64,000 nucleotides of DNA, taken from NCBI GenBank assembly GCA_040219065.1, contig JAVJTD010000261.1:657-64656 (forward strand). The letters are read 5' to 3'. Source of the DNA: Planctomycetota bacterium (lineage in GTDB: Bacteria; Planctomycetota; OFTM77). This document shows positions 5,877-63,778 of the stretch, piece by piece. Position 1 is the first letter of the stretch. Each line of letters begins with the position of its first letter. The notes beneath the pieces were generated by a model that was not told the DNA's origin, did not search any database, and saw only the letters and a program-made list of their open reading frames with translations. The position numbers and the translations under genes were made by a program.

Positions 5877-7139
5877 CTACTTCACGCGCTCGATGTCGGC
5901 GCCTAGCTTGGCGAGCCTTTCTTCGATGCGCTCGTAGCCTCGGTCGAGGTGGTAGACGCGGTGGATCTCGGTCTCGCCTTTGGCGACCAGGCCCGCCAGG
6001 ACGAGGGCGGCGCTGGCTCTCAGGTCGGAGGCCATCACTGGCGCGCCGGAGAGCTTGTCGACGCCTCGGATGATGACGGTCGGGCCTTCCTTTCGGATGT
6101 CGGCTCCCATGCGGTGGAGCTCGGCGACGTGGATGAAGCGGTCGGGGTAGACCTTCTCGGTGACGAGGCTCATGCCGTCGACGACGGAGAGCAAGGAGAC
6201 GAACTGCGCTTGCAGATCGGTCGGGAAGCCGGGGAAGGGCAGGGTCGTCAGGTCGGTCGGCTTGAGGCCGCCATTCGGTCGCACCCGCACCCAGTCCTCA
6301 CCGCACTCGACGTGGCAGCCGACTTCGCGGATCTTCTCGAGCACGGCGGTCACGTGGGAGGGCACCATTCCCTCGACGCAGACGTCGCCGCCGGTGATGA
6401 CGCCGGCCACGAGCATCGTCGCCGCGTCGATCCGGTCGGGGATGACGCTGTGGGTCGTGCCTCCCAGACGCTCGACGCCGTGCACCTCGAGCCGGTGCGT
6501 TCCCATGCCCCGGATGTCGGCGCCCATCTTGTTGAGGATCGTCACCAGATCCTGCACTTCGGGCTCGCAGGCGGCGTTCTCGATGATGGTGCGGCCCTCG
6601 GCGAGTACGGCTGCCATCAGGACGTTGGCCGTGCCGAGGACGGTCGAGCCGAAGGCGGAGCCGAGGTAGATCTCCGTCCCGACCAAGCGTTCGGCCTCGG
6701 CGACGACGTAGCCGTGCTCGATCTCGATCTCGGCGCCGAGCGCGCGCAGTCCCTTCAAATGAAGGTCGATCGGCCGCACGCCGAAGACGCAGCCGCCGGG
6801 CAGAGACACCTTCGCCCGCTGGCGCCTCGCGAGGAGCGGCCCGAGCACGCAGACCGAGCCACGCATCGCGCTGACGAGCTCGTAGGGCGCGGTGACCAGA
6901 TCCTCGTTGACCGATCGGCAGCGCACACCGCCGCCCTCTTGGTGCTCGACCTCGACGCCGAGCGCTTCCAGCAGGCGGAGCATGTTGGTCGTGTCGCGCA
7001 AGAGCGGCGGATTGGTGAGCTCGACCGGTTCGTCGGCGAGCAGAGTCGCCGCGAGGATCGGTAGCGCCGCGTTCTTCGATGCGTTTGCGCGGACCGTCCC
7101 GCTCAGCCGCGTCCCACCGCGGACGAGGATCTTGTCCAT
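5877..7139 (-). CDS. murA: UDP-N-acetylglucosamine 1-carboxyvinyltransferase
   Basis: 420 aa, full-length similarity to MurA (MDKILVRGGTRLSGTVRA..., active-site region KVSLPGGCVFGVRPIDLH). Confidence 0.93.
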   Translation of the reverse strand: MDKILVRGGTRLSGTVRANASKNAALPILAATLLADEPVELTNPPLLRDTTNMLRLLEALGVEVEHQEGGGVRCRSVNEDLVTAPYELVSAMRGSVCVLGPLLARRQRAKVSLPGGCVFGVRPIDLHLKGLRALGAEIEIEHGYVVAEAERLVGTEIYLGSAFGSTVLGTANVLMAAVLAEGRTIIENAACEPEVQDLVTILNKMGADIRGMGTHRLEVHGVERLGGTTHSVIPDRIDAATMLVAGVITGGDVCVEGMVPSHVTAVLEKIREVGCHVECGEDWVRVRPNGGLKPTDLTTLPFPGFPTDLQAQFVSLLSVVDGMSLVTEKVYPDRFIHVAELHRMGADIRKEGPTVIIRGVDKLSGAPVMASDLRASAALVLAGLVAKGETEIHRVYHLDRGYERIEERLAKLGADIERVK

Positions 7140-8532: not shown

Positions 8533-9438
8533 CTAGGCGCCGAGGTGATCGTGCCAGGCGGCGATGGCGCGCTTCTTCTCCTCGGGCTCGAGGGAGGCCT
8601 CGAAGCCGAAGTCGACGTCGAAGAGGTGCATCAAAGCTTCATCCGCCTCTTCCTGGATCGCCTCCTTCTCGTCTTCGAGGCGAGGCAGGAGGTCCTTGGC
8701 CAGCGCGTTCAGTCCGGCGCGTCCGACGAGCTGCGTCGTGAAGAGGCGGATCTCCGGGTTCTCGTGCTCCAATCCGCCTCGCACCGTCGACTCGTCGAGT
8801 GAGATGGTCGCCATGCGGCGCTTGCGATACTCGGCGATGCCTTGCACGGCGCCCTGAAGGGCTTTGGGATTCGATTCGCGAACCGAGCTCTCGAACACCT
8901 CGGAGAGCAGCTCGAAGCCCGGCACTCCGATCTCACTGAGCACCTGGAAGGCGACCGGCCGCCAACGCGACTGACCGGAGACGAGCTGTTTGCGGATCTC
9001 CGCCAAGGACTCGTCCTTGTTCTTGACGAGCCAGGCGAGGCTCTTGTCGCCGAGGATGGAGGGCTCTTCCACCGGACGATCGCGCTCGGGGTCGAAGCGG
9101 CGGAAGTAGAGCGGAAAGCCTTCGGCGTCGACCTCTTGGACCAGCCTGAGCTCGGCACGGGCTTGCTGCCAGGCGACGCCGGGTGTCTCGGGCGCCATGG
9201 TCAGGAGGACGGTGCCTTCCTCGGTCGACTCCGTCCCCTCGGGTGGCAGGCCGCGCTCCGAGAGCCAACCGGCGACGATAATAGCCAGCTCTTCGCTCTC
9301 GAGCTCGAGGGTGCCACCTTTGGACGGGGCGTCTCGAGCTTCTTCGGCATCCAGGCTCGCGACCAGGTCCACCTCGCAGTCGGCGCAGGTGGCGACGCTG
9401 TCCTCGTACTCGCACTCACAACGGGGGCAGAAGGCCAC
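8533..9438 (-). CDS. hypothetical protein with N-terminal zinc-ribbon (CPRCECEY...CADCE) and C-terminal HEAT-like repeats
   Basis: 301-aa ORF, coding-like GC3, co-directional and tightly spaced upstream of pepP/murA; no specific family recognised. Confidence 0.55.
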   Translation of the reverse strand: MAFCPRCECEYEDSVATCADCEVDLVASLDAEEARDAPSKGGTLELESEELAIIVAGWLSERGLPPEGTESTEEGTVLLTMAPETPGVAWQQARAELRLVQEVDAEGFPLYFRRFDPERDRPVEEPSILGDKSLAWLVKNKDESLAEIRKQLVSGQSRWRPVAFQVLSEIGVPGFELLSEVFESSVRESNPKALQGAVQGIAEYRKRRMATISLDESTVRGGLEHENPEIRLFTTQLVGRAGLNALAKDLLPRLEDEKEAIQEEADEALMHLFDVDFGFEASLEPEEKKRAIAAWHDHLGA

Positions 9439-9711
9439 GAGCGGCTCCTCTCCAGCCGAGATTCCTGGGAAGAACGGCCCTCCAAGACCGTGGTCTGCGG
9501 GCCCCGGTGGCGCGCCACTCTAGCAGAGCGCCATCGGTTGACAAGGGGCAAAAACTTGCTACGGTTATGCGTTTCCTGAAGGCCGAGGGCACCGTCGGAT
9601 GGGGATGGAAATCCGACCGGCGAGCATGATGAGACGGGCCGTTCGGGGCGGATCCGCCCCGCTCGATCCCTCGGCAAAGGCGCCAAGCACCGAGCTGGAG
9701 AGCGAAACCCG

Positions 9712-11091
9712 ATGAGCGAAGAGTCTCTGGATCCGCGGGAAGCCGAAGTCACGGCCACGACGGACGTGTCGACCGAGACGACGGACGAGCCGACGTTCAA
9801 CGCGGTGGCGTTCTTCGAACAGGTCCCCCTCGAGTTCGAGTCGATCGAGCAGATCGAAGAGGCGAAGAGGAACCTCTTCGCCTGGCCCAGGTCCTTCGAG
9901 ACCTTGCGCACGCACGTCCTCGGCCTCGCCGAGTCCGGGCAGCCGAGCACTCGTCTGGGTCTCGGGTTCTGGCTGCTCGGTTACTCCTCGAAGGCCGCCG
10001 AGACGTTGTCTCAGGCCGGCGAGGACCTCATCGCCTACTACTTGTGGGCCCACGCGCTGCTCGAGTCGGGGCGTTATCAAGAGGCGGCCGATCAGTTCTC
10101 CGAGCTGGCGCGCACCAAGCTCAAGGAGCGTCGCTTCTTGTTCGGCCTGGCCGAGTCGTATCGCCGTCTCGACGACCTCGACAACCTCGAGAAGACCATC
10201 GGTCGCCTCGAGAAGCTCGACGATGTCGAAGCGGACCTCGCCTACTTCCGGGGCGCTCACGCCGAGCGGCAGGGCGAGTACCGGGAGGCGATCGAGCACT
10301 ATCGCAAGTCGATCCACTTCGAGTCGGAGCACAGTCACGCGCTCTTCCGACTCGCCTATCGTCTCGACCTCGAAGGCGAGGACGAAGAGGCGATGGACAT
10401 CTACGAGCAGTGCCTCGAATGCGGCGTGACGTACGTCAACGCCGCCATCAACCTGGGGGTGCTGCTCGAGGACGCCGGCCGCTTCCGCGATGCGATGCGC
10501 GCCTACCAGCGCGTCTTACATCACCACCCGAATCACCCGCGGGCGAAGCTGTTCTTCAAGGACGCCGAGTCGTCGCTCACGATGTTCTACGACGAGGATC
10601 AGGAGCGCAAGGAGGACAAGCGCAACCAGATCCTGCGCATCCCCGTCACCGACTTCGAATTGTCGGTCCGCTCCAGGAACTGCCTCGCCAAGATGAACAT
10701 CGTCACTCTCGGCGACCTCATCAAGAAGACCGAGGCCGAGCTGCTCTCCTACAAGAACTTCGGTGAGACCTCCCTGGCCGAGATCAAGGACATCCTCGGG
10801 CAGAAGGGCCTGCGCTTGGGCATGGCCAAGGACGAGGACCCTGCGCCGCCGGGAACCGTCGGACCGGTTTCCACCGGCGGCGGTGACGAGACCGTGCTCG
10901 GCAAGCCGATCTCCGAGCTCGAGCTCTCCATCCGCTCGCGCAAGGCGATGGATCGCCTCAACCTCAAGACGATCCACGACCTCACGCTGATCGGCGAGAA
11001 CGAGCTGATGTCGTGCCCGAACTTCGGGCAGACCTCCCTCAACGAGATCAAGCAGAAGCTCGCCGCCTTCAACCTCCGCCTCAAGGGCTGA
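9712..11091 (+). CDS. TPR-repeat protein with two C-terminal RNA polymerase alpha-subunit CTD-like (alpha-CTD, HhH) modules
   Basis: 459 aa; central TPR-like helices; two copies of the RpoA alpha-CTD signature ([55 protein letters not shown] and [54 protein letters not shown]). Confidence 0.7.
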
Positions 11092-11776: not shown

Positions 11777-11914
11777 GCCTGGCCCGGCACCCAGGGAGGA
11801 GGTCGCCAAACCTCCAGCCGCCATCTTCGGCCGAGCGTGAAGGAGCCGAGCAAGAGTACCTTCGGACCGCAGGGTCTCAGCCGGACTCGGTGCCCCACGC
11901 CCCATGCTCTCCCA

Positions 11915-15485: not shown

Positions 15486-16637
15486 ATGAGCATATCGGAG
15501 CCACCGATCGTCGATTCCGAATCCCCTCCGGCGCCCCCCCCTGCTCCGCCCGGCACGACCCCACCTCTCGTTCGCATCCAGCATCTGAGCTGCCGACGCG
15601 GCTCGACCCTCGCCTTGGACGATGTCTCGCTCGAGGTGCGGCGAGAGGAGATGGTCGCCGTGCTCGGTCCTTCGGGATGTGGCAAGACCACCCTGCTCCG
15701 CTGCCTCGCCGGTCTCCAGAAGCCCAGCGCCGGACGGATCGAGCTCTCGGGTCAGGTCGTCAACGATCCCGCGATCCGGATCGGTGCTCGGCAGCGCAAG
15801 ATCGGCTTGGTCTTCCAAGACCTCGCCCTTTGGCCACACTGGAGCGCGAAGAAGCAGCTCGAGTTCGTCTTGAAAGGTGCACGCCAGCACGTCGACCGGC
15901 AGGAGCGGGTGCGCGAGACGCTCGCGCTCTTCCACCTCGAAGGACTCGAGTCGCGTCGCCCGTCGGAGCTGTCGGGCGGTGAGTGCCAGCGGCTCGCGCT
16001 GGCGCGCTCGGTCGTGGTCGCTCCTGAGCTCTGGCTCCTCGACGAGCCGCTCTCCAGCCTCGATGCCCACCTTCGTCAAGAGCTGCGAGTGGAGCTGGCG
16101 CGCATCCACCGAACGCTCGGACTGACGTCCTTGATGGTCACCCACGATCAGGACGACGCCTTCGCCCTCGCCGATCGCGTAGCCGTCCTCCGCAATGGGC
16201 GCCTCGAGCAGTTCGACCGCCCCGAAGCACTCTATCGCGCCCCGGCCTCGCGCTTCGTCGCCGGCTTCGTCGGTGCCTGGATATCCTTGAAGGTCGAGCT
16301 AGAAGGCCGGGAAGTCGCGACGGCGCTGGGTCGATTCACCCTCGCCGGCGAGCCTCGAGGAGATGTCGAGGTGGGCATTCGACCGAGTGCGCTCCGCATG
16401 ACGCGGCGTGGCGAGTCGGGCCTGACCGGTACGGTTCGTCGCGTTCAAGCGAGTGGCGCGACGACGCGTTGCACGATCGCCATCGGCTCCGAAGAGCTCG
16501 CCATCGAGCGCCCGATCGACGAAGCCCCTGCGCAAGGTGAGACGGTCGGCCTCGAGCTCGTTCACCCGCCACTCGCCTTCGACGGGGAGGGTGCTCCTCT
16601 CGAATGGCAATCCTCCTCGAGCACACCCTCTGCATGA
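15486..16637 (+). CDS. ABC transporter ATP-binding protein (PotA/FbpC/ModC type with C-terminal TOBE-like domain); no cognate permease adjacent
   Basis: Walker A GPSGCGKTT, ABC signature LSGGECQRLALAR, Walker B LWLLDEPLSSLD, H-loop VTHDQ, Q/LSGG spacing typical of importer ATPases; 45-aa Pro-rich N-extension. Confidence 0.85.
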   Translation: MSISEPPIVDSESPPAPPPAPPGTTPPLVRIQHLSCRRGSTLALDDVSLEVRREEMVAVLGPSGCGKTTLLRCLAGLQKPSAGRIELSGQVVNDPAIRIGARQRKIGLVFQDLALWPHWSAKKQLEFVLKGARQHVDRQERVRETLALFHLEGLESRRPSELSGGECQRLALARSVVVAPELWLLDEPLSSLDAHLRQELRVELARIHRTLGLTSLMVTHDQDDAFALADRVAVLRNGRLEQFDRPEALYRAPASRFVAGFVGAWISLKVELEGREVATALGRFTLAGEPRGDVEVGIRPSALRMTRRGESGLTGTVRRVQASGATTRCTIAIGSEELAIERPIDEAPAQGETVGLELVHPPLAFDGEGAPLEWQSSSSTPSA

Positions 16638-19301: not shown

Positions 19302-19309
19302 GAGCCCCC

Positions 19310-19890
19310 CCCCCTTCCGACCTGAAGCTCGCCGCATTCGGACCGCCGGCTTCAGCCGGTCTCGGTGTCCTCCATCCAAGCGCCTTGGAGAGGACCCAGA
19401 CCTCAGATCCGAAACTCCGTGGCACGATGCCGCCAGGTGTCGGATCGCCGGCTTCAAAGTTGAGAGTTGGAAGTCGAGCCGTTGGATGTTCGAAGAGGCC
19501 CAAGCTCGCTTGGGGAAGCCCTCACCAACAGACTCGGCCTTTGGCTCGCTCGGCTTGGGCACTCCAGTGCGCCGGGCCCAAGGAAGTCACGCCGGCACGG
19601 TGCGCCCCGGCCCAAGCTCGCTTGCGCAGAGCTCTCGCAGACAGACTCGGCCTTTGGCTCGCTCGGCTTGGGCACTCCAGTGCGCCGGGCACGTTTCACC
19701 CTTGTATGCTTAAGGCGCCGCGCCCGGGGGCGGGCTCGGAGTGCGCTGTCTCGGCGCCTCCGCGTGCCCCGGCCCAAGCTCGCTCGAGTAGAGCCCACAC
19801 AGACACACTCTGCCTTTGGCTCGCTCGGATTGGGCACTCCTTCGCCCTCGGGCCCAGTTTCACCACCTGCATGATCCGGGGGCGCTGCTG
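19310..19890. repeat. mosaic intergenic repeat locus 1 (reverse orientation relative to loci 2 and 3)
   Basis: Three reiterations of ~75-nt unit cccaagctcgcttg..agactcggcctttggctcgctcggcttgggcactcc. Additional shared modules ccgccggcttcagccggtctc, ggacccagacctcagatccgaaactccgtggc, agtttcaccacctgcatg. Whole segment is the reverse complement of segments at 45650-46090 and 56535-57260. Confidence 0.85.
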
Positions 19891-19903
19891 ATTTGCGCTT
19901 TCC

Positions 19904-26610: not shown

Positions 26611-26797
26611 CAGTGAATCCTCCCGAGTTGATCGAGACCGATCGGCCGGGTGTGCCTTAACCAGTCGTGGCTCGCGCGAAAAGGTCGACAGAGATTCTCG
26701 ATTTTTCTCGGAGAAAATTGGTGAGAATCGTCTCCGACGCGAGTCGGACCGGCGCTTTCGAGGGAGTCACGTCAGGGTCCGACTCAGGGGGAGCGTC

Positions 26798-27397
26798 ATG
26801 ATCTGGAGAACGCTGATTCGCCTGCGCTTCACGATCATCTTGACGATCGTGGCCTGTGCTTGTGCCGAGGGGAGTCGGCGGTTGCCGATCCTCCTGTGGC
26901 GCCGTGTCACCGAGGCCGATGTTCAGCGCCCGATCCGAGCAGCGCACGAGAGGACGACGGTCCCCTTGTCCGGCCCTGGCATCTACGAACTCCTGCTTCA
27001 GTTTCCCGAGCTCTGGCCCGAATCAGGCGCGGTTGGAGCGCGATGGTCCGTTACCGGTGACGAGCCGTCACTGGATCCGAGCGAGTGGAAGCCGATTCGC
27101 CGCTCACTCTCCAGCGATGGGCTTTCGTCGGCATACCTGGACTCGGTACACATTCGAGGACCCGGGAATCAGGCGTTCTCGATCGAGCTCGATCTCGTCC
27201 CCGTTATCGAGGCGGCCGGCGAGTTCCGCTTGATCGTGCGGGACTTGGACTTGGTGATGGCGGCGAGGCAGGGATCGTACACCGCGTACTTCTTGCGTCA
27301 GGCCTCTTGGTTCTTCTTGGTCGGAGCGGCCTTGGCCTTCGTGACGGAAGCGCTACTCTGCTGGCGAGCCTTTCGGGCCGAGCCGGGCCCCGGCTGA
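26798..27397 (+). CDS. hypothetical membrane protein (N- and C-terminal TM segments flanking a periplasmic domain)
   Basis: Internal ATG of ORF 26282..27397 preceded by GGAG; hydrophobic FTIILTIVACACA and WFFLVGAALAFVTEALL. Confidence 0.45.
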   Translation: MIWRTLIRLRFTIILTIVACACAEGSRRLPILLWRRVTEADVQRPIRAAHERTTVPLSGPGIYELLLQFPELWPESGAVGARWSVTGDEPSLDPSEWKPIRRSLSSDGLSSAYLDSVHIRGPGNQAFSIELDLVPVIEAAGEFRLIVRDLDLVMAARQGSYTAYFLRQASWFFLVGAALAFVTEALLCWRAFRAEPGPG

Positions 27398-27500
27398 GAG
27401 CTCCCCCCGTTCGGAAAAGGCTCGCGCCACCGGCATCGATGTCCCAAATTGTGGCGCAGCAAGTGGTGACATCGGATTCGTCGTGGGAGATGAGTAGATC

Positions 27501-28040: not shown

Positions 28041-28184
28041 AAACAGCTCAGCTGAGGGTAGCCGCTAGGGTGTCGCGCAATTGGCGGTCGACTTCAGTTC
28101 TCGAGCCAGATTCGCCGAAGGCACAACTGAGCACCGGCACGGCTCGATCTCAACCTCGCCAATTGCGAGGACCCGGCGGCTGAA

Positions 28185-28661
28185 ATGATTGACTGCACGA
28201 ACCGAAGCCTATTGGTTGTCGATGATAACTTCGGGGCTCCCGAGGGCGTCCCGCAGGTTCTCTCCTCGCCCGAAGTCGAAGACCCGGCGTTGGATGAGCT
28301 CGGGGCTGCCTTGCTCGGCGAGGAGGCAGGCCCAGGTGGGCCGGCCCCGAGTGTTCCGAGCTACCTCGTCCGAACGCCTCCCACGGCGATTCTCGGGCTG
28401 GCCGGCCTCTCGTGCCGGATCCTGCTCGTCGAGGACACCCCGCTCAACCAGAAGATCATTCGCCGCACGCCCGAGCGCTCCGGCGCTACCGTCAAAATGC
28501 GTGAGAGCGGAGGCTACGATCGGCCGATCGTCGTGCTAACTGCCCGCGCAATGACGGAAGATTCCGTTCGATGCCTGAGAGCAGGCTTCGATGCTCATCC
28601 TTCAAGGCCTTTCCTGCGGAAAGCTCCGGTCGAAACGATCCGCGCTCATCAGGCGCGGTAA
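28185..28661 (+). pseudogene. decayed response-regulator receiver (REC) remnant
   Basis: Two REC-like beginnings (SLLVVDDN; RILLVEDTPLNQKIIRR) and a REC C-terminus (PIVVLTARAMTEDSVRCLRAGFDAHPSRPF), but the phospho-acceptor Asp region is missing; many A/T-ending codons, atypical for this genome. Confidence 0.4.
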
Positions 28662-29332
28662 GCTCTGCCCCCAGATTCCTCGCTGTCTTCCCTGCACCCA
28701 CTTGCCGTGTTCCTCCCACCTTGACAGCGCCCGAGTGCCTTCATCGTGACAACAACCGCCCGCCACTGGGCGGAGGAGGACACCGTGCTTCATTCTTCCA
28801 ATGCGGGATCTGCCGCTCTCTGGGCGGTCGAGAGACTCACGCGCTCGATCCTTCCCGTGCTCCAGGCTTCTTGGGTCCTGGGCATCGCGCTCGAGCTCGG
28901 ACTCCTGACGGTGGACAGAGCGGCTGCGGGGAAGCAAGGTCCACCCCCCAAGCGATGGCCGCCGGGCTCCGCATTGCCATTCTCGGCGAACGGGTTCACG
29001 CTCATCATGGCGGTCCCTCCGGGCTGCATTTACACGCATGAAGGTCACAGCGAGCAGGCTCGGCTGATGACGGGCTGCTCAGACGAATTGACCGCACTCG
29101 TCCCGTTCATCCTGTCCGAAGTGCAGCCTGCTGGCTGGGAGCACAGGTCTCCTTGGAAGGAAGCTTCGCTCATTCCAGCCTCGGTCGAGCTGCCTTGGCA
29201 CTCAGCAACACCTTCCACCGACCGTGTTGTGCGGCCGCCCAAAGGCATCAGCGACGGTCCGATCGCCTCGTAGGGCAGAGCCTCGACGGCTCGTGGAGAT
29301 TCCCTGCGATCCTCCCTTCACAGGATTCCAAT

Positions 29333-36885: not shown

Positions 36886-37356
36886 TCAACGAAGAATCGT
36901 CCCCAGGACTCGAGGCAAGTCGTCATCTTTACCGCCGAGGCAGTCGAGGCAGCCGGAACGATCGGTTTGCTTCGAGCATTCCTGGCAGCCCCGGATCTTC
37001 TGGCGAGCTTTCTCCAGCGACTGGAGCAGCTCTTCGAGCCGTCGAATCCGGTCCCGAATCGCCTCCTGTTGATTCGCGAACGCCTTGTCGAGTGTCGCGG
37101 ATCGCTCGGGAGTGACTCGGTCCCAGTCCGTCGGTTTACGAAGAAGAGCGACGTCTTCCAAGCTCAGTCCGGCGAGTTTTAGATCTTGGATGCACTGAAC
37201 GTCCGCAATGGTCGATTCTTCGAAGAGTCGAAATCCGCCGGAGCTCCTCTCGGCCGCCTGAATCAGCCCCAACTGCTCGTAGAAGCGGATGGTACGCGTC
37301 GTCGAGCACGTGCGTTTGGCGAGCTGTCCGATGGTGAGGTGCCGAGGTTTCGTCAC
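36886..37356 (-). CDS. MerR-family transcriptional regulator
   Basis: N-terminal HTH LTIGQLAKRTCSTTRTIRFYEQLGLI, coiled-coil dimerisation helix, C-terminal Cys cluster (CQECSKQTDRSGCLDC) suggesting a metal/redox-sensing MerR. Confidence 0.8.
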   Translation of the reverse strand: MTKPRHLTIGQLAKRTCSTTRTIRFYEQLGLIQAAERSSGGFRLFEESTIADVQCIQDLKLAGLSLEDVALLRKPTDWDRVTPERSATLDKAFANQQEAIRDRIRRLEELLQSLEKARQKIRGCQECSKQTDRSGCLDCLGGKDDDLPRVLGTILR

Positions 37357-37375
37357 GATGTCGCTCCGATATCTA

Positions 37376-37391
37376 ACCTTTACGTGAAGGT
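37376..37391. promoter_or_regulatory. near-perfect 16-bp palindrome ACCTTtACGTgAAGGT, candidate MerR operator
   Basis: Lies ~20 nt upstream of the merR start between TTGACC-like and TATCGG-like hexamers on the minus strand. Confidence 0.4.
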
Positions 37392-37870
37392 CAAAGTTTA
37401 ACGTCGAGGCCCGTAGGATTCAACACCGGGCCCCGCGTGGGGCGGCTCGCGAGGATCCATCTCAAAACGACTTAGCTCCAACCCCTCACGAGCGGCCCGG
37501 GAGCTGGGCCTTCACTGCTCGTCCACCCCCTTTAGACGCACCCCGCTCCCTCACCACCTCGTCGATATTCGACTGGATCCTCTCCATCCTCGCCGCTCCT
37601 CCCAGCACTCCCCCTCCTCGCCGATGCCCTCCCCGACCCCCTTCCACCCCCAACGAAGCAGTCCGCCTAAGCCGTTCCTTTTCAAAGAGTCACAATGGCC
37701 GCGCGGATGGAGCCCGCCTTCAAGGACCGGGCGCTCCTGGCCGATGATCTCCTTGAGCTTTCCCGGCCTCAGGCCAATCCGACCAAGGTCGCCAAGATCG
37801 CTTCGCAGAAAAGCCGCGCACTCATCCGACATTGCCGACCGACGGCCGCCCGAAAGGAGCCCCCCCTCCG

Positions 37871-44974: not shown

Positions 44975-45639
44975 TGAGCGACACCGAACGCCGATCCTCC
45001 GACGCCGATTCCGATCACACGGATTGGCCGTTCGAATTGCCCCCTCTCGAGCCCTACGAGACGACCGAGGGCAATCGACTCGGCCTGATGGATGCCGTTT
45101 CGACCATGCTGGGGGGCATCGGTGAAGACGCGAGCCGGGACGGCTTGATCAAGACGCCGCTCCGGGTGGCCAAGGCGATGATGTTCCTCACGAAGGGGTA
45201 CCGCGAAGACCCCGCCGAGATCATCAACGGCGCGATCTTCGAAGAGGACTGCGAGGAGATGGTCCTGGTGAAGGACATCGACTTCTTCAGCCTCTGCGAG
45301 CATCACCTCCTGCCGTTCTTCGGCAAGGCGCACGTGGCCTACATCCCCAACAAGAAGATCCTGGGCTTGAGCAAGATGGCGCGCATCGTCGAGGTGTTCG
45401 CCCGGCGCCTCCAAGTTCAAGAGCGCCTGACGCGGCAGATCGCCAAGACACTCGAACAGCACCTCAAGCCCCGCGGCGTCGCGGTCGTCATCGAGGGCCA
45501 GCACCTTTGCATGCAGATGCGCGGCGTCGAGAAGCAGAACTCCGTCGCGGTGACATCCTCGATCCTCGGCCTGTTCCGCACCTGCGCCGACACGAGGGCC
45601 GAGTTCATGAACCTGATCGGTCACCCCGGACGCCGCTGA
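44974..45639 (+). CDS. folE: GTP cyclohydrolase I (FolE type I)
   Basis: Internal ATG (MSDTERR) overlapping the queD stop (TGATG); conserved [21 protein letters not shown] and [15 protein letters not shown] motifs. Confidence 0.9.
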
Positions 45640-46096
45640 GCCGGACATCAAAGGAGTGCCCAAACCGAGCGAGCCGGTGACCGAGTCTCTTGGAGAGGGC
45701 TCTCCCGAGCGAGCTTGGGCCGGGGCGCGTCGGACGACGGCAGGTGCGGGCCACGGAGCTTCGGATCTGAGGTCTGGGCCTCTCCGAGGTGCCCGGATAG
45801 AGGACACGGAGACCGGCTGAAGCCGGCGGTCCGAATGCGGCCGGTTTCAGCTCAGGAGCCGCTCCCCGTTTCGGTCGCGCGGGCTTTGGTTTGGTTGTGC
45901 GGGCTCCGGTTTCAGTCCAGCCCCGACCCCGGCAGCGGACCGCCGGAGCAGACTGTGGTGAGACTGGCCGCTTCAGGCCACCTCCCGGCTGAAGCCGGGG
46001 AACCAACCCGACTGAAGTCGGGGGATACAGGGATTCCCGCTGAGCCGGTTTCAGCTCAGGAGCCGATTCCCGTTTCGGTCGCGCGGGCTCTGGTGA
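45640..46096. repeat. mosaic intergenic repeat locus 2
   Basis: Contains unit ggagtgcccaaaccgagcgagccggtgaccgagtctcttggagagggctctcccgagcgagcttgggccggggc plus modules ggccacggagcttcggatctgaggtctgggcc, gagaccggctgaagccggcggtccgaatgcgg and a duplicated gtttcagctcaggagccg..cccgtttcggtcgcgcgggct; fills the whole folE / ECF-sigma convergent spacer. Confidence 0.85.
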
Positions 46097-49798: not shown

Positions 49799-49936
49799 GA
49801 CTCGAGCTCCATCAGGGGAGTGACTTCAGATCGCCGATCGACCTGCTCGGGGAGTGAAACGGGAGGCGCCTCACGATCCGGCAATGGAGTCGTGAGTTTT
49901 CGTATCCCCCCACTTCAGGAGGTTGGCTCTCCGGCT

Positions 49937-50809
49937 TCAGCCGGATCGTTTCCCTTCGAAACGCGCGTTCCTCGTGGTCGCGGGCTCCACTCCGACGCTC
50001 TCGGTCTTCGCGAAGACCCGTTCCCGGTGCTGGAAGAGCCGGACGACGTTGTCGGAGAATTCGAGGCCGCGGTCGAGGGTGATGACTTGGCCGGTGATCG
50101 CGTCCATCTTGCCGCTGCAGAGGCCGACGATGGCGCTGGCGATCTCCTCGGCTTCCAGGAAGAACGCGTCGCTGTGGTACTGGCGACAGAAGGCGGCGAA
50201 GTCCTCGCCGAACGTCGCCTCGAGAGAGCGGGTCTCGCAGAACCAGGCGCGGAGGACGTTCACTCGGACGTCGTCTCCGAGAAGGTCGGCGGCGAGGTAG
50301 CGGCAGAAGGTCTCCATGACAGACTTGGAGGCGGCGACGACGTCGTAGCCTGGCAGGAAGTACTCGGGACCGGGTGACGAGAGCCCGATCGCGTAGCGTG
50401 GATAGGCACCGAAGTGCTCTTTGATCGCTTGCAGGTACGACGCGAACGGCCAGGCGCTGTACTCGAGCCCGCGGCGGAGGCCCTTGCGCGTCAGGTCGCT
50501 GGGCGTGTGACACACCGGCGCGAACGAGACGTTGCTGACGAAGACCTCGATGCGCTCGTGATAGCGTCGCACCGACTCGAAGAGCGCCCGCGTGTCCTCG
50601 TCTCGAGCGACATCGGCTTCGAGGATCGCGGGCGTTGGCGCCCCCTCCTCTTGAAAGCGCTCGGTAATCGCGTCCTCGTCGGCCGAGCCCCAGCGATGCG
50701 TCAGGATCGTGCTCGCACCGCGCCGCCCGAAGGCCAGCGCCGTCTCGAGACCGATGCCTTGCGTGCCGCCGGTGACCAGCACCGCCTTGCCCGTGAAGTC
50801 AACGCGCAT
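49937..50809 (-). CDS. enoyl-[ACP] reductase-like SDR (FabI/FabL-type Tyr-x6-Lys)
   Basis: AVLVTGGTQGIGLETA; active-site spacing Y-DVVAAS-K; paralogous to the next gene. Confidence 0.7.
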   Translation of the reverse strand: MRVDFTGKAVLVTGGTQGIGLETALAFGRRGASTILTHRWGSADEDAITERFQEEGAPTPAILEADVARDEDTRALFESVRRYHERIEVFVSNVSFAPVCHTPSDLTRKGLRRGLEYSAWPFASYLQAIKEHFGAYPRYAIGLSSPGPEYFLPGYDVVAASKSVMETFCRYLAADLLGDDVRVNVLRAWFCETRSLEATFGEDFAAFCRQYHSDAFFLEAEEIASAIVGLCSGKMDAITGQVITLDRGLEFSDNVVRLFQHRERVFAKTESVGVEPATTRNARFEGKRSG

Positions 50810-54379: not shown

Positions 54380-55168
54380 TCACTTCGTCCAGTCCAGTCC
54401 GCCGGTGACGGGGATCACCTGCCCATTGATGAAGCTGGCGGCATCGCTCGCGAGGAAGAGGACGACGCGCGCCAGCTCTTCGGCTTCGCCCATGCGTCCA
54501 CCCGGCATGGGGCAGAGGTCTCGCCAGTAGTCCCGCATGCGCTCCGGCATCGTCTCGCGCGTCATGTCGGTCTCGAAGAAGCCCGGCCGCACGACGTTGG
54601 CGCGGATTCCCTTCGGTCCGTACTCCTTCGCGAGGCTTCGCGTGAGCCCTTCGAGCCCGGCCTTGCTCGCCGCGTAGTTGGCCTGACCCGAGCCGCCGCC
54701 GGCTTGGATCGAGGAGACGTTGATGATGCGGCCACAGCGGCCCGCGAGCATCGAGGGCAAGAAGTGCCGGCAGACGCGGAAGGGGCCCGAGAGGTTCGTC
54801 GCGATCACCGTGTCCCATTCCTGGTCCGACATCGAGATCGCGAGGTTGTCGCGGTTCACGCCCGCGCAGTTCACGACGACCTCCACCGGCTCGAAGTCGA
54901 GCTGCACCGCCTCGAGCGCCGGCTCGATCGCCTGGGCATCGGAGACATTCAACTCGTAGGCGCGGCAGTGAGCTTCTGGACGCATCGCTCGGGCGGCCTC
55001 GATCACGCCACCGGCAGCAGCGCGATTCGATTTGAAGGTAAAGGCAACATCGTGACCGGCTCGGATCGCCTCCAGCACGATCGCCGCGCCCAGCCCGCGC
55101 GAGCCTCCTGTGACCAGCCAGTTCACCTCGCGTCTCCTTCTTCGAAGCGCCGATACAGCGCGCAGCAA
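54380..55168 (-). CDS. fabG: 3-oxoacyl-[ACP] reductase (FabG-like KR); probable true start at a GTG near 55126 preceded by AAGGAGA
   Basis: WLVTGGSRGLGAAI, NAG motif VVNCAGVN, catalytic S..YAASKAGLEG (YxxxK). Confidence 0.88.
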   Translation of the reverse strand: MLRAVSALRRRRREVNWLVTGGSRGLGAAIVLEAIRAGHDVAFTFKSNRAAAGGVIEAARAMRPEAHCRAYELNVSDAQAIEPALEAVQLDFEPVEVVVNCAGVNRDNLAISMSDQEWDTVIATNLSGPFRVCRHFLPSMLAGRCGRIINVSSIQAGGGSGQANYAASKAGLEGLTRSLAKEYGPKGIRANVVRPGFFETDMTRETMPERMRDYWRDLCPMPGGRMGEAEELARVVLFLASDAASFINGQVIPVTGGLDWTK

Positions 55169-56427
55169 TTGATCCCGCCGAAGCCGAAGGAGTTCTTGAG
55201 CAGGACGTCGGCGCGGTGCTCGACGGGTCCTTCGGCGCAGACATCGAGCGCGACCTCGTCATCGAGCTCATCGATGTTGATCGAGGGATGCAGGACGCCG
55301 CCTTGCATCTGCAGCAGCGCGGCCACCGTCTCGACGACGGGCGCCGACCAGCAGGTGTGACCGAGCATCGACTTCGGCGCGTTGACCTTCAGCCGATCGG
55401 CATGACTACCGAACGCCGCGCGCAGCGCTCGCATCTCGGACAGGTCGCCCTGCGGCGTCGAGGTCGCGTGCGCACACACGAAGTCGACATCCTCGGGGCG
55501 CGTACCCGTGCGTTGCAGCAGCCGCTCGATCGTCCGAGTCTGCCCTTCGGGAGACGGCGCGGGCAGGTGACAGCCGTCGGCGGTCGCTGTACATCCGAGC
55601 ACCTCGGCGTAGATGCGTGCGCCCCGCCCGAGCGCATGCCCCAGCTCCTCGAGCACCAGCACGCCCGCTCCGTGCGATGGCACGAAGCCCTCTCGCCGCT
55701 TGTCCCACGGCCGGCTGGCCGCTTCGGGACAATCGTTGAAGCTCTCGATGCTGATCGCGCCCATCAACGCCATCGCCTGCACATCGAGCGCTGAGAACTC
55801 GAGCACCGGACCGACGACCATGACGAGGTCTTGGTCATGATGACGAATCTCGTCGAGGCCGGTGCGCAAGGCGAGGTTGGCGCTCGCGCAGGCACCACCG
55901 AGCGTGAATGCCGATCCCTTCCAGCCGAGCACCTCGCTGACGGAGCCGGCGTGATCGGTGTCGAGCATCAGCAGCGCCGCGGCCGCGTCGATGTAATCGG
56001 GCTCGCCGCGAAACGTCTCGTAGTTGCCGATGAGGTAGTTCTGGTTCAGGTTGTGCCCGCCGACGAGCACGCTGCTCCGGGTCGGGTCTTCCTGGCCGGT
56101 CAGTCCGGCGTCCCTCCAGCCCTCGGCGGCGACGAGCATCGAGATCTCGGTCGAGAACGGAGCCTTCTTACTGAGCTGACGGAGCCGACGATGCATCGCG
56201 TCGGGCAGCCGCTCCCGCAGCGCCTCACGCCGCGCCACGCCATCGACGTGACCGGCGAGGTCGCCGCCGATCTTCGAGTAAACACCCTCCGTCTCCAGGC
56301 TGCGCCACTGCCGGATCGCCGAGCGCCCGGCGAGGAGGTTCGCGTAGAAGGTCTCGAGGTCACCGCCGAGCGGCGTCTGTATCGCCATCCCCGTTACGAC
56401 CACTCGCCGTTGATTCGCCGCGATCAT
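55123..56427 (-). CDS. beta-ketoacyl-[ACP] synthase (FabF/FabB-like KS, Cys-His-His triad intact)
   Basis: Starts MIAANQRRVVVTGMAIQTPLG within ORF 55123..56508; active-site Cys LGGACASAN, His CAHATSTPQGD, His KSMLGHTCWSA. Confidence 0.88.
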   Translation of the reverse strand: MIAANQRRVVVTGMAIQTPLGGDLETFYANLLAGRSAIRQWRSLETEGVYSKIGGDLAGHVDGVARREALRERLPDAMHRRLRQLSKKAPFSTEISMLVAAEGWRDAGLTGQEDPTRSSVLVGGHNLNQNYLIGNYETFRGEPDYIDAAAALLMLDTDHAGSVSEVLGWKGSAFTLGGACASANLALRTGLDEIRHHDQDLVMVVGPVLEFSALDVQAMALMGAISIESFNDCPEAASRPWDKRREGFVPSHGAGVLVLEELGHALGRGARIYAEVLGCTATADGCHLPAPSPEGQTRTIERLLQRTGTRPEDVDFVCAHATSTPQGDLSEMRALRAAFGSHADRLKVNAPKSMLGHTCWSAPVVETVAALLQMQGGVLHPSINIDELDDEVALDVCAEGPVEHRADVLLKNSFGFGGINCCALYRRFEEGDAR

Positions 56428-56509
56428 GACGTGCTCCTTCGTGAGGCTCCGAGCGACTCGACAGTCGCTGTCGCCGAGGGAAACGAAGGAGGCATGCCGA
56501 TCCGGCAAT

Positions 56510-57335
56510 CAAGTCAGCAAGATCGTTGCGGCGAACCGGCGGAGCATACAGTGCTGAAACTGGGCCCGAGGGCAATGGAGTGCCCAAGCCGAGCGAGCCC
56601 GTGACCGAGTCTCTTGGTGAGGGCTTTCCCAAGCGAGCTTGGTCCGGGGCGGCCGTGCGACGACAGCGCACTCCGAGCGGCCCCTTGCTCCGCGCCTCCC
56701 AATTCGATCGGTGGCACCGTCGAGGAAGCAGCTCCCCGCTCAGCAGCCGCTCCCCGGTTCGGTCGCGCGGGCTCTGTTTTCGGTCGCGCGGGATCTAGTT
56801 TCAAGTCAGCAGCGCCCCCGCGGTGGACCGCCGGAGCATACAGGGGGTGAAGCTCGAGTGCGTTGGAGTGCCCAAGCCGAGCGAGCCCGTGACCGGGTCT
56901 GTCGGTGAGGGCGCTGCGCAAGCGAGCTTGGGCCTCTTCGAACGTCCAACGGCTCGACTTCCAACTCTCAACTTTGAAGCTGGCGATCCGATCGCACGCG
57001 GCGGCATCGGGCCACGGAGCTTCGGACCTGAGGTTTGGGGCTTCTTCAAGGCGCTGGGATGAGGGCACCGAGACCGGCTGAAGCCGGCGGTCCGAATGCG
57101 GCATGTTTCAAGTCAGCAGCGCCCCCAGCGCGGCGCCGGAGCATGCAGGTGGTGAAACGTGCTCGGTGCATTGGAGTGCCCAAGTCGAGCGAGCCGGGGA
57201 CCGGGTCTCTTGGTGAGGGCCTTCCCAAGCGAGCTTGGGCCGGGGCCGACCGCTGCAACCCCAAGCCTGTGAGGCTTGCCCTCGTCTGGGTCGTGCCGCT
57301 GCGCGGACCGATGCGGGCAGGATCCCGCGCTCCTC
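56510..57335. repeat. mosaic repeat locus 3: ~2.7 tandem copies of a ~300-bp unit inserted between the fabZ-like and KS genes of the biosynthetic operon
   Basis: Unit starts ccggagcat(a/g)cag..gtgaa..ggagtgcccaagccgagcgagcc..gaccg.gtct.t.ggtgagggc..cccaagcgagcttgggcc, recurring at ~56535, ~56834 and ~57141; also contains ggccacggagcttcggacctgaggtttgggg and gagaccggctgaagccggcggtccgaatgcgg, shared with loci 1 and 2. Confidence 0.85.
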
Positions 57336-57851
57336 TCAGTCGTCCAGCCAAACCACCTGACAAGCTGCGGCGGTGCAGATCTTGCCGTCGACGATTGCCT
57401 GGCCGATGCAGGTACCGATCCAGCCGTCGTCTTCGGTCATCTTCACGACCAACCGGACATCGTCGCCGGGCCGGACCTCTTCGAGGAACTGGGCGCCTTC
57501 GATCCTGGCGAGCCGAAGAGAGCGCGGTGCGTCGCCGGGCAGGAGCTCGGTCCGCTCCGCGCGGATGAAGTGAGCGAGGGCGAGTCCGGCCTGACCGATC
57601 ATCTCGAGGAGGAGCACGCCCGGGTAGACGGGATCGGACGGGAAGTGCCCGTCGAAGACCGGGTCCGCCACATCGATGTGCCGCCGTGCCTCGAGCGCCC
57701 GCTACGCGAGGTCGATCTGCGCCACGCCGTCGAGCAACAAGAAGGGCGCACGGTGCGGGAGGATCTGCTCCAGCCCCATGCGATCGATGTCGACCGCGGT
57801 GCCTCGTTCCTCCATGAGCGTGCTTCGGGTCGGCAGTCTCACGCGCTTCAT
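57336..57851 (-). pseudogene. FabZ/FabA-like hotdog dehydratase interrupted by an in-frame TAG (~codon 50)
   Basis: Listed ORF 57336..57671 begins mid-domain at (V)ADPVFDGHFPSDPVYPGVLLLE, the FabZ catalytic-His motif region. The 177 nt upstream reads in the same frame MKRVRLPTRSTLMEERGTAVDIDRMGLEQILPHRAPFLLLDGVAQIDLA-TAG-RALEARRHIDV, i.e. the FabZ N-terminus (ILPHRxPFLLxD). Its ATG overlaps (ATGA) the stop of the upstream AT gene. Confidence 0.7.
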
Positions 57852-58798
57852 GACGCCACCGAACGCGGCGAGGTCGCCGCTCTCAGGCGTGGAATCAACT
57901 CACGGAGATGCTGCGCCGTTTCGTCTTTGCTGTCGCAGGCGTGCTTGTCGACGCGGCACCACTTGCGATCCATCAGGCTAGTCAGCACCGACTTCGCCCC
58001 GACCTCGACGAACACCGCATCCGGCCAGCGCTCGCGAACGTGATCGATCGACGCTCGCCACTGAACGGGCGAATGCACGTGCTCGGTCAGTAGCCGCTGC
58101 ATCTGCTCGGGGGACGGGCAGAGACACTCGCGTCCCAGCACGTTGGAGAAGTACGGTCGATGCGGCCGCTGCCAGCGCACGCGATGCAGGTGCTCCGCCA
58201 ACTCGTCGGCGACCGGGCGGAACATCGAGCTGTGCATAGGGCACCGCTTCTCGATGACGACTGGCTGCGCAAAGTGCTCGTCCTCGGCGCTGCGGACAGC
58301 ATCAGCGACGGCTTCGGCATGGCCTGCGATGACCTGCTGGCGCGGCGAGTTGAGGTTCGCGATCTCGAGGCAGCGGTCTCCGCGGACGCGCTCGATCAGC
58401 GCTTGCACCTCGCCCTCTTCCATTGGCTGAACGGCGGCCATCCAGCCGCGTGGTCCGCGATCGTACGCACGCCCGCGAGCCTGCACCGTCAGGAGCGCCT
58501 CACGAAAGCTCAGAGCGCCGATGTGCACGAGATGGTTGAGCTCGCCGAGGCTCGCGCCGAGGGAGAGATCCGCTCGTACACCGCGAGCTTCGAGGAGGCT
58601 CTGGAACATCAGGTTGGCGAGGAACACCGCGATCTGGATGTCCTCGTTGCGCTCGAATCGTCGCTCATCGAGCTCGCGGCCGAGCAGCCGCTGCGCCTCG
58701 GCGAGAACACCCAGGTTCGGGGCGTGCAGCTCGGTCAGCTTGGTCAGCATCCCGGGATACCGCGAGCTCTGACCGGGGAAGAGGTAGACGAGAGTCAT
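57848..58798 (-). CDS. malonyl-CoA:ACP transacylase-like acyltransferase (FabD family)
   Basis: FPGQSSRYPGM, active-site GASLGE (GxSxG), ...HS... motif; 316 aa. Confidence 0.82.
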   Translation of the reverse strand: MTLVYLFPGQSSRYPGMLTKLTELHAPNLGVLAEAQRLLGRELDERRFERNEDIQIAVFLANLMFQSLLEARGVRADLSLGASLGELNHLVHIGALSFREALLTVQARGRAYDRGPRGWMAAVQPMEEGEVQALIERVRGDRCLEIANLNSPRQQVIAGHAEAVADAVRSAEDEHFAQPVVIEKRCPMHSSMFRPVADELAEHLHRVRWQRPHRPYFSNVLGRECLCPSPEQMQRLLTEHVHSPVQWRASIDHVRERWPDAVFVEVGAKSVLTSLMDRKWCRVDKHACDSKDETAQHLRELIPRLRAATSPRSVAS

Positions 58799-58813: not shown

Positions 58814-60043
58814 TCAAAGAAGGGTATCGGTGAGGATATCGAGCGCGCAGTCGAGCTCGTCCGGAGTGTGGGCCGCGGTGATGGCGACGCGGTAGCGCAG
58901 CGCGTCCTCGGGCACGGACGGGTAGTCGATCGGGGCGAGGAACAGGCCGCGGCGGGTCATCTCGGCGCATCGCTCGTAGAGGCGATCGCGGTCGGAGCCC
59001 ATCATGATCGGGATCACCGGGCTCTCCGATTCGCCGCAGTCCAAGCCTGCCTCCTGCGCGCGCGCCCGGAAGTAATGAGTATTCCTCCATAACGTCTCTC
59101 GCCTGGAACCGTCGCGCGTGGCGATGTCGAGCGCGGCCATCACACCGGCCACGACCGAAGGCGGCAAGGCGCAGGAGAAGCCGTAGGGCCTCGAGTACAG
59201 CCGGAGGTACTGCAGCGTCTCGCGGTCCCCGGCCGTGAATCCGCCGATGCCTGCCAGCGCCTTGCTGAACGTCCCGAACTGGAGAGCGATCCGCCCCTGC
59301 ATTCCAAAATGCTCGACGACGCCCCCGCCGGTCTCGCCGAACATCAGGTACGAGTGCGCCTCGTCGATGAAGATCGGGACGTCGTGCGCCTCGGCCACCG
59401 GGACCAATGATGGGAGATCGGCGAGGTCGCCGTCCATCGAGTACACGCCTTCGAGCACGACGAGACGACGGCGTCCGGCAGCCGCATCGAGGGCACGCTC
59501 GAGCGAGACGGGATCGTTGTGGTCGAAGAAGACGAGCTTGGCGCCCGAGACTCGCGCGCCATCGATCAGGCAGAGGTGGCAGCGCGCATCGAGGATCGCC
59601 ACATCCCCCTTGCGAAGCAAGCCGGCGAGGCTGCCCATGCCGCCCGCGTAGCCGCTGTTGAAGAGCAGGCAGGACTCGCGGCCGAGGTGCTCGGCCAAGC
59701 GCTCCTCGAGGAGGGCGTGGAGGTCGGATGTGCCGGAGAGGATCGGCGAGCCGCAAGCGCCAGTGCCGTACTCCTGGAGCGCAAGGGCAGCGGCTCGGAG
59801 CACGTCGGGGTGGCGGTTGAGCCCGAGGTAGTTGTACGAGGCGAGGTTGATCACCGATCGACGCGCTCCGGCGCGCTCGATGTCGACCCGCGGAAGAGCG
59901 GCTCCGTGGAGCCGAGGCTCCATCAAGGAGAGGGGCTCCTGGCACCGCGCGAGCCAGGCCGTGAACTCGGGAGGCGCTTGGGCCGGATCGGAGGTGTCGG
60001 GGAACGCGAAATCGGCCAGGCTGTACTCGATGGACGTGCTCAT
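58814..60043 (-). CDS. PLP-dependent alpha-oxoamine synthase family enzyme (SPT/CqsA/BioF/KBL-like acyl-thioester:amino-acid C-acyltransferase)
   Basis: Starts MSTSIEY within ORF 58814..60115; SYNYLGL, GTGACGSPILSGT, PLP-lysine motif GTFSKALAGIGGF. Confidence 0.85.
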   Translation of the reverse strand: MSTSIEYSLADFAFPDTSDPAQAPPEFTAWLARCQEPLSLMEPRLHGAALPRVDIERAGARRSVINLASYNYLGLNRHPDVLRAAALALQEYGTGACGSPILSGTSDLHALLEERLAEHLGRESCLLFNSGYAGGMGSLAGLLRKGDVAILDARCHLCLIDGARVSGAKLVFFDHNDPVSLERALDAAAGRRRLVVLEGVYSMDGDLADLPSLVPVAEAHDVPIFIDEAHSYLMFGETGGGVVEHFGMQGRIALQFGTFSKALAGIGGFTAGDRETLQYLRLYSRPYGFSCALPPSVVAGVMAALDIATRDGSRRETLWRNTHYFRARAQEAGLDCGESESPVIPIMMGSDRDRLYERCAEMTRRGLFLAPIDYPSVPEDALRYRVAITAAHTPDELDCALDILTDTLL

Positions 60044-60146
60044 GAGTGAGTCCTCGTTCTCGTGATCGATTCGGTCGTCACCGAGCGAAACGAGAACGAA
60101 GATCGGATCCGGCAAGAAGGAGCGCCGGATTCGTGGCGCGTCAGCA

Positions 60147-63553: not shown

Positions 63554-63778
63554 GGTCGAAGGCGAAAACGGAAGTCGGTGCCGGATCCGGCAATGAGCCG
63601 ATCGAGTTACGAAGGACGAGATCTTGATGACGAGGCGTGGAGAGCCGGCGTCGGGTGATTGCGGGGTGAGCCGCGATTCACGAATCACGAAGATTGCCGG
63701 ATCGCGAGCTCCCTGCCGTTTCAACCTCCGACTCTTTGAGCTGTCGCTTTCCGAACCGGCCGACCGCAGGAGCCAACG

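Follow-up and report, generated by a model that had tools for sequence, protein, structure and literature searches.

Dispersed repeat modules make up the long gap between dehydratase and ketosynthase genes in a planctomycete biosynthetic cluster

Bacterial repeats of the BOX type, which follow the scheme boxA-boxB(n)-boxC in pneumococci, are built from a middle module that is reiterated and from end modules that differ. The repeats described in the present work presumably resemble pneumococcal BOX, as well as the ERIC, RUP and Correia elements, in that they are intergenic, modular and endowed with hairpin potential; to our knowledge, no sequence relationship links our modules to any of these elements. 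They depart from them in that their modules combine in many orders, and in that neither terminal inverted repeats nor target duplications were detected. Another family that invites comparison is that of the BIMEs of E. coli and Pseudomonas. Here the likeness is extensive: in both cases we find extragenic and dispersed repeats, sited behind gene ends, whether the gap is convergent or within an operon, in which hairpin-forming sequences are mixed with other short modules into mosaics, and which are specific to one species. There are differences too, since the units of the array that concerns us are all in the same orientation rather than alternating, and since REP and BIME families comprise more than 100 copies per genome together with a RAYT gene flanked by the repeats, whereas no RAYT is encoded in the 64 kb that we analysed. 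The REP sequence proper is an imperfect palindrome of 20-40 nt, one end of which is tagged by GTAG or CGTC (PMC3733652). We rejected an identification of our repeats as REPs, because their palindromic core is 69-70 nt long and because neither this core nor the TGAA-loop hairpins that accompany it carry a GTAG or CGTC tag. Their location is nevertheless that of REPs and BIMEs: all six sites where we found them (6/6) are extragenic, at gene 3' ends, and the modules form mosaic clusters.

The sequence considered here, termed the window in what follows, is the whole stretch of 64 kb that was analysed from a Planctomycetota bacterium. It contains a biosynthetic cluster which, as delineated with Pfam and open reading frames, is interrupted by an unusual gap. 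The genes that flank this gap are all on the minus strand, in the order alpha-oxoamine synthase (AOS), acyltransferase, dehydratase (DH), gap and ketosynthase (KS):

58814-60043, minus strand: AOS, start codon ATG at 60043 (Pfam, open reading frame)
57848-58798, minus strand: acyltransferase (Pfam, open reading frame)
57336-57851, minus strand: FabA/ApeI-like DH, whose stop codon bounds the gap (Pfam FabA, tblastn with four orthologues, translation)
56428-56480, minus strand: KS leader; its Shine-Dalgarno sequence, AAGGAG, lies 6 nt upstream of the ATG start codon at 56427 (sequence, fold)
55123-56427, minus strand: KS (Pfam, open reading frame)

Beyond KS come a ketoreductase, an HMG-CoA synthase, two enoyl-CoA hydratases, two SDRs and an ACP, assigned by the same means. 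Between the stop codon of DH (57336-57338, minus strand) and the start codon of KS, the gap spans 908 nt (56428-57335). The initial annotation had contrasted it with all other junctions of the cluster, held to be overlaps or spacers shorter than 110 nt, and this is nearly right, the SDR-ACP gap with its 138 nt being the exception. The gap is non-coding. Its GC content at codon positions 1, 2 and 3 stays at about 0.66-0.69 in all six frames, with no codon-position bias, while in the genes beside it GC3 is 0.81-0.85 and GC2 0.44-0.48; the longest open reading frame that it contains (196 aa) found no match in a Pfam search and no relative among 5.8 billion proteins searched. The remnant of an AurF gene, of the kind that a related cluster (L001) has at this junction, was also sought and had to be discarded: tblastn confined to the spacer gave a best E-value of 0.58, and blastn with the AurF region of L001 only noise. 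The AurF-like gene of the window lies at the distant end of the cluster, with its start at 63779.

Most of the gap is filled with an array of modules, listed here in the direction that leads from KS to DH:

56509-56650, plus strand: head a, made of module A (56509-56575) and core B (56577-56645); repeat search, alignment, nhmmer E 1.5e-41
56651-56726, plus strand: module E, common to 19765-19715 (minus strand) and more diverged at 45727-45745
56727-56800, plus strand: module D, homologous to 45850-45895 and 46043-46094
56801-56934, plus strand: head b, made of module A (56801-56863) and core B (56865-56934); repeat search, alignment, nhmmer E 1.2e-36
56935-57107, plus strand: module C, 173 nt, with homologues at 19496-19330 (minus strand) and 45747-45858
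57108-57246, plus strand: head c, made of module A (57108-57171) and core B (57173-57241); repeat search, alignment, nhmmer E 3.8e-40
57242-57294, no strand assigned: linker without self-BLAST partner in the window, with a small hairpin, caagcctgtgaggcttg, present in folds
57295-57332, minus strand: GC-rich module F, a hairpin 3 nt past the DH stop codon, sense to the DH transcript and present in the minimum free energy fold

The three copies of the conserved head, each of about 140 nt (56509-56650, 56801-56938 and 57108-57246), follow one another with a start-to-start distance of 288-308 nt, and each associates module A (about 65 nt) with the imperfect palindrome of core B (69-70 nt). They are 76-82% identical to one another, versus 52% in shuffles. 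By contrast, the tails that separate them (about 90-170 nt) share 42-50% identity, which is the level of shuffles, and they are made of differing modules, namely E, D, C, the unique linker and hairpin F. The periodicity is therefore real, yet the unit is not 300 bp long. What had been described as an approximately 830-bp block of about 2.7 tandem units of some 300 bp was thus correctly seen as repeated, non-coding and periodic, and misjudged as to its unit. In line with this, TRF at a minimum score of 30 found no tandem array of about 300 bp, and a minisatellite-type array was discarded on the strength of that negative outcome and of the chance-level tails. The more general statement, that a large repeat-built non-coding block occupies the DH-KS junction, is borne out by the flat codon-position GC and by repeats far above chance.

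Within the heads, core B starts with GGAGTGCCC, and its interior is variable while its ends are invariant (GGAGTGCCCAA..CGAGCGAGCC and AGCGAGCTTGG). The beginning of the core comprises GGAGTGC, the complement of which, GCACTCC, is carried by module E. Module D holds a 21-nt tandem duplication (TTCGGTCGCGCGGG...), retrieved by TRF as a period of 21 at 56758-56801. In module C, a stretch of 33 nt (57070-57102) is identical in the three copies of the window (3/3), and the ccggcTGAAgccgg hairpin (57074-57087) sits inside it. The palindromic motifs quoted in the initial annotation as part of the unit are all present, with the qualification that the gagaccggctgaagccggcgg hairpin occurs once in the array and not once per unit. 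A CRISPR array was considered as well and rejected: the heads, of about 140 nt, are not in the range of 23-50 nt, the would-be spacers are modules that recur elsewhere, and there are no cas genes among the open reading frames of the window. At both borders the fit of the array is tight. Module A of head a directly abuts a promoter-like motif, with zero spacing, and hairpin F lies 3 nt past the DH stop codon, so that the array exactly fills the space between a gene end and a promoter-like site.

This array belongs to a family. A 24-mer of the core has 7 matches in the window, versus 0.00 in shuffles, and comparison of the window with itself retrieves the repeats with BLAST E-values from 1e-27 to 1e-80; besides two paralogous SDR genes, they are the sole repeated DNA in the 64 kb, core B being present in 7 copies and module C in 3. 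Modules A to F, together with the TGAA-loop hairpins, recur in five further intergenic gaps:

5812-5850: degenerate piece resembling module F, 27 nt past the EPSP synthase stop codon (self-BLAST)
11861-11895, minus strand: degenerate end of module C (35 nt, 88.6% identity), where RuvA converges with a small open reading frame after MnmG
19314-19885, minus strand: paralogous composite array A-B-E-A'-B-B-C, inverted, with three B cores and C, between convergent HEAT-repeat genes
45636-46094, plus strand: third of the composite arrays (B-E'-C-D-A, two TGAA hairpins, then D), in the gap where the GTP cyclohydrolase I and ECF sigma genes converge
49902-49944, minus strand: SDR-ACP gap, a TGAA-hairpin module that matches 45985-46028 with 86% identity over 44 nt

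The view that the element was peculiar to the biosynthetic operon is contradicted by these five sites. The genes at the other sites of the family are unrelated housekeeping genes (HEAT-repeat, GTP cyclohydrolase I, ECF sigma, RuvA, MnmG and EPSP synthase). The relationship between arrays extends beyond single modules: 56540-57119 and 19878-19314 form a collinear block of 589 bp with 72% identity (E 1e-79), which points to duplication of whole composites. The B cores, for their part, have interior variants particular to each array, a situation that would fit local amplification or homogenisation. It can be observed that the ends of core B and the 33-nt stretch of module C are strongly conserved, against an overall identity of roughly 72%. 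When sorted by the type of gap in which they reside, the members of the family are found in 4 of 6 convergent, 2 of 11 co-directional and 0 of 8 divergent gaps, and all six sites are downstream of a gene end (6/6). There is thus a bias of the family for gene 3' ends over promoter-only regions, at a level of roughly p 0.07 with the 25 gaps available. Orientation is not uniform: the modules of the array run antisense to the genes that flank the DH-KS gap, whereas those of the other arrays have at least one upstream gene to which they are sense. Module F is a case apart, as it is 85% identical over 39 nt to the piece at 5812-5850, and as both copies share the same orientation relative to the gene upstream, DH or EPSP synthase. 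We may take it as a candidate 3'-end or terminator-like hairpin of the DH transcript. At 49902-49944, the SDR stop codon falls in the loop of the hairpin.

The promoter-like motif that borders the array on its KS side is bipartite, TTGCCGGATC-N13-CGTTT. It was defined by local alignment of the regions upstream of KS and ACP, with a score of 33 versus 15.6 ± 2.3 in shuffles. Plain alignment of the KS upstream regions, carried out before this local alignment, was uninformative. The window has five exact copies, for 0.04-0.09 expected (0.09 when 2 mismatches are allowed):

49857-49884, minus strand: 58 nt before the ACP ATG (49798)
56481-56508, minus strand: 53 nt upstream of the KS ATG
60088-60115, minus strand: 44 nt before the AOS ATG (60043)
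63566-63593, minus strand: 57 nt before the start of an amine-oxidase-like gene (63508)
63694-63721, plus strand: 57 nt upstream of the divergent AurF-like gene, whose start is at 63779

All five (5/5) point at genes of the cluster, 44-58 nt before their start codons. A relaxed form of the motif, TGCCGG[AT]-N15-CGT[TG]T, was found in the two closest of the orthologous clusters, at three sites in L001 (before AOS, KS and ACP) and at four in L003 (before SDR, AOS, KS and ACP), where a further relaxed match precedes a divergent hydroxylase gene; over the window, L001 and L003 the distance to the start codon is 44-65 nt. The motif was not found in L002, L004 and L005. All three loci that have the motif (3/3), and none of the three that lack it (0/3), have an ECF sigma gene next to the cluster, and a Ser/Thr kinase gene lies beside this sigma gene in the window and in L001, the sequence of L003 ending inside the sigma gene. 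Upstream of the sigma and kinase genes themselves, the motif was not found. ECF groups linked to Ser/Thr kinases are known (PMC7826278). As for ECF promoters, which are bipartite, with -35 and -10 elements and CGT in the latter, the motif of the window is likewise bipartite, recurs at a fixed distance before several genes of one cluster and is conserved in orthologous loci; its -35 half, however, departs from the common GGAAC-type consensus. This comparison concerns the motif that flanks the array and not the repeats. We infer that the motif is the promoter of each unit, probably dependent on the adjacent kinase-linked ECF sigma factor.

The recurrence of the motif, its conservation in L001 and L003 and the adjacent ECF sigma gene make the DH-KS junction probably an operon boundary, and one that varies across orthologues. 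With such a site between the array and KS, the two halves of the cluster look like separate transcription units. The cluster as a whole appears to be built of at least five units sharing one promoter-like motif and tied to the neighbouring ECF sigma/kinase pair, an organisation that amounts to a testable regulatory model and that is a more useful by-product of this work than the repeats. A pairing of the Shine-Dalgarno sequence with its complement, as a designed switch, was set aside, because the pyrimidine tract in question is part of the motif spacer at all five sites (5/5). The orthologous clusters illustrate how the junction varies:

L001: an AurF-family gene between DH and KS
L002 (Nannocystis bainbridge): DH-KS gap of 19 nt
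L003: three genes between DH and KS, encoding an AMP-ligase, AurF and a divergent fatty-acid hydroxylase
L004: DH and KS not adjacent, KS beginning its own unit
L005 (an Enhygromyxa MAG): DH and KS overlapping by 4 nt

The initial annotation had rightly pointed to orthologues as the decisive comparison, and the long repeat spacer is absent from the junction in all of L001-L005. The same place has extra genes in the closest orthologous clusters and nothing in the more distant ones; the DH-KS boundary is a place where, repeatedly, genes have been gained or lost or repeats have built up.

Taken together, these features lead us to consider it likely that the gap holds a species-specific interspersed family of mosaic repeats, accumulated in a permissive space between units of a multi-promoter cluster. 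The same modules are found in other gap sites at gene ends, and the array is located upstream of the KS promoter-like motif; we therefore take the DH-KS gap for repeat DNA of a common intergenic sort, rather than for a dedicated device inside an operon. We would picture it as a patchwork of dispersed non-coding modules, where three A+B heads are interleaved with E, D and C, then F, and which belongs to a family that would populate the gene-end gaps of the chromosome, in this organism only as far as the collections searched can tell. The family may have spread as composite blocks, via duplication or recombination, with subsequent local amplification and homogenisation, and its modules would have filled the space left free between the 3' end of the AOS-acyltransferase-DH unit and the promoter-like motif of KS. 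The array itself would be selectively neutral or selfish, acting at most as a hairpin-rich insulator or as a buffer at the 3' end; an insulating or terminating side effect is possible. The conserved ends of core B and the conserved stretch of module C hint at some constraint or at gene conversion, and at the inadequacy of a purely neutral model. In practical terms, the gap should be labelled in annotations as interspersed repeat DNA, and not taken for a device that regulates the biosynthetic cluster. Repeat families of Planctomycetota are little described, and a catalogued example is of modest value.

Could the family be mobile? One may imagine a non-autonomous element, MITE-like or REP/REPIN-like, with a transposase encoded elsewhere in the genome, the array being the outcome of repeated insertions. 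The family is dispersed, intergenic, hairpin-forming and lineage-restricted, its cores have conserved ends and variable interiors, and it is missing from a syntenic relative, L016, all of which would suit such an element. In L016, whose MnmG is 80% identical to that of the window, blastn and nhmmer found no modules, and the gap orthologous to 19302-19903 is 296 nt long and unrelated in sequence, its divergence being too great for insertion points to be placed. A search with exact patterns of a genome collection from which the source genome is absent gave no homologous repeat among the matches listed; a metagenome scan gave 0 matches with the B core and 9 with the module C hairpin, all in unrelated coding sequence; plasmid, phage and viral contig collections had no homologue of the repeats, and the five orthologous cluster loci had no module detectable by nhmmer profiles or blastn. 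As to the organism, its KS is 100% identical to a protein from a MAG labelled Planctomycetota, and 60-64% identity links the MnmG of the window to relatives in the Pirellulales, which makes the host a planctomycete; otherwise the closest relatives of the KS (up to 72%) are in MAGs and Nannocystaceae. The hallmarks of transposition are otherwise wanting, which makes mobility of this kind unlikely in our eyes. Neither a transposase nor a RAYT is encoded in the 64-kb window, and no target-site duplications were seen. The search for inverted repeats yielded three weak pairs only, none at unit boundaries, and no terminal inverted repeats, and the lack of the latter at unit ends led us to reject an identification as MITEs. 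What bounds the core is the 7-nt pair GGAGTGC/GCACTCC, which flanks B+E in just two of the seven copies (2/7); there is no GTAG or CGTC tag such as that of the REP super-families (PMC3733652); and the 589-bp collinearity fits duplication of a block better than insertion of single units.

A more elaborate proposal sees in the repeats a BOX-like, non-autonomous planctomycete family of A-B(n)-C architecture, where an unknown protein recognises the ends of the core and the 33-nt hairpin, and where the arrays actively insulate transcription units. That protein would be either an enzyme that mobilises the elements or a factor for termination or insulation. We hold this to be quite unlikely.

The hairpins also raise the question of a structured RNA family with a host function, be it as small RNAs or as orientation-dependent terminators. 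In core B, the consensus folds into an imperfect hairpin with 20 pairs, 2 of them compensated and several broken. Stem-loops with a TGAA loop number 6 in the window, versus 0.28 in shuffles; their stems show compensated variants (cccggc/gccggg versus cccgac/gtcggg), and five out of six are sense to an upstream gene. The invariant 33 nt of module C would find a natural place in such an RNA. When it comes to measurable structure the case weakens considerably. The covariation term of the core B consensus is only -0.16 kcal/mol, for seven closely related copies, and folding of single units, which had been advocated as a check, gave z-scores mostly from +0.9 to -1.6, with -3.1 as the best, so that stability is mostly unremarkable. 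Rfam 15 had no match with E of 1 or less in the DH-KS gap or in the array at 19.2-20.0 kb, and nothing reached the gathering score anywhere in the window, the third array displaying a chance-level match to RF02657 (E 0.26, 16.5 bits against a gathering score of 61 bits). In addition, the modules of this array run antisense to the genes on either side. A host-serving RNA is accordingly improbable. A tRNA-derived element was also envisaged; a tRNA-like gene was sought, and none is present.

The idea put forward at the outset was that of a tandem insertion within one operon, acting as a polar block, as an internal promoter or terminator, or as an RNA processing or stability site that would uncouple the two halves of the cluster. 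It is true that so large a gap is unique to the source genome among orthologues, that there are hairpins within the modules and that one of them, F, comes right after the DH stop codon. But the array is not tandem, and the conserved promoter-like motif before KS makes the halves probably separate units. Moreover, a consensus scan found no sigma-70-like promoter in the array, and retrieved one weak terminator-like site only, on the plus strand, the wrong one for the operon. Folding of the whole spacer gives a z-score of -1.2 for the minus strand and -1.4 for the plus strand, unremarkable at 67% GC. Finally, the modules run antisense to the operon at this place, and sense to one or more upstream genes in the other arrays. 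The proposal did not withstand these observations, and we give it scant credence.

It is highly unlikely that the array is an artefact of the assembly, in which repeats would have led to a chimeric join or to a mis-expanded one, even though the source is a MAG and contigs assembled independently from run SRR26147846, which is the same organism, break in repeats (L019 inside the third B core, and L018 inside the third array, near 46016, as deduced from gene coordinates), because both flanks, DH and KS, are expected syntenic neighbours and because L019 is exact over the 121 nt of the array beside DH, the number and order of the middle units being outside its reach. This contig is identical to the window from 59700 to 57215, bar one base, and ends at 57215 in core B of head c. 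From DH inwards it agrees with the array over the first 121 nt; its match and its break tell us that the repeats directly follow DH, and that such repeats break short-read assemblies. The single base that differs lies in the DH gene, where the source assembly has an in-frame TAG at 57702-57704: L019 has C for T at 57704, which gives CAG, a glutamine codon.

Several genes of the cluster carry, at a near-constant 44-65 nt upstream of their start codons, a bipartite promoter-like motif with consensus TGCCGG[AT]-N15-CGT[TG]T, which is kept in the two closest orthologous clusters (L001 and L003):

49857-49884, minus strand, promoter-like motif, window
56481-56508, minus strand, promoter-like motif, window
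60088-60115, minus strand, promoter-like motif, window
63566-63593, minus strand, promoter-like motif, window
63694-63721, plus strand, promoter-like motif, window
5903-5929, 9918-9944 and 16573-16599, promoter-like motif, L001
2173-2199, 3136-3162, 9916-9942 and 16586-16612, promoter-like motif, L003

A gene for an ECF sigma factor adjoins the cluster in all three loci that bear the motif (the window, L001 and L003), with a Ser/Thr kinase gene at its side in the window and in L001. We may take the motif as a candidate promoter of an ECF regulon. In the minimum-free-energy fold of the region just upstream of KS (56428-56500, minus strand), the Shine-Dalgarno sequence CGAAGGAG is predicted to pair over 8 bp with CCUCCUUCG, some 45 nt upstream, a segment which falls within the motif's spacer and -10 region, so that only read-through transcripts, not those started at the motif, would hold the pairing partner. 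This pairing may be incidental, as the spacer is pyrimidine-rich in all five motif copies.

In L001 and L003 a gene of the AurF family (diiron oxygenase) lies between DH and KS; in the window, an AurF-like gene begins at the opposite end of the cluster, in divergent orientation, and continues past the window edge:

8821-9903, AurF-family gene, L001
7793-8890, AurF-family gene, L003
63779-64000, plus strand, AurF-like gene, window

Judged by the housekeeping gene mnmG, whose product has Pirellulales relatives at 60-64% identity, the organism belongs to Planctomycetota, and the named relatives of the cluster KS all belong to Nannocystaceae (Myxococcota), with up to 69-70% identity. The biosynthetic cluster is common to these two phyla, possibly as a consequence of horizontal transfer.

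In the present assembly codon 50 of DH (57336-57851, minus strand) is an in-frame TAG (57702-57704), where a contig of the same organism, assembled independently from run SRR26147846, reads CAG (Gln) instead, this single base being the sole mismatch across 2,486 bp. Either this base varies within the population or a consensus sequence is in error; DH is probably not a fixed pseudogene.

Four other long gaps of the window, of 0.9-1.4 kb, hold neither a member of the repeat family nor a confidently called gene:

1990-3398, long gap
26611-27500, long gap
28041-29152, long gap
36927-37831, long gap

At 49930-49945 (minus strand) the second SDR gene has its TGA stop in the TGAA loop of a 6-bp hairpin, tccggcTGAAgccgga, which is of the same family as the hairpins of the repeat arrays.
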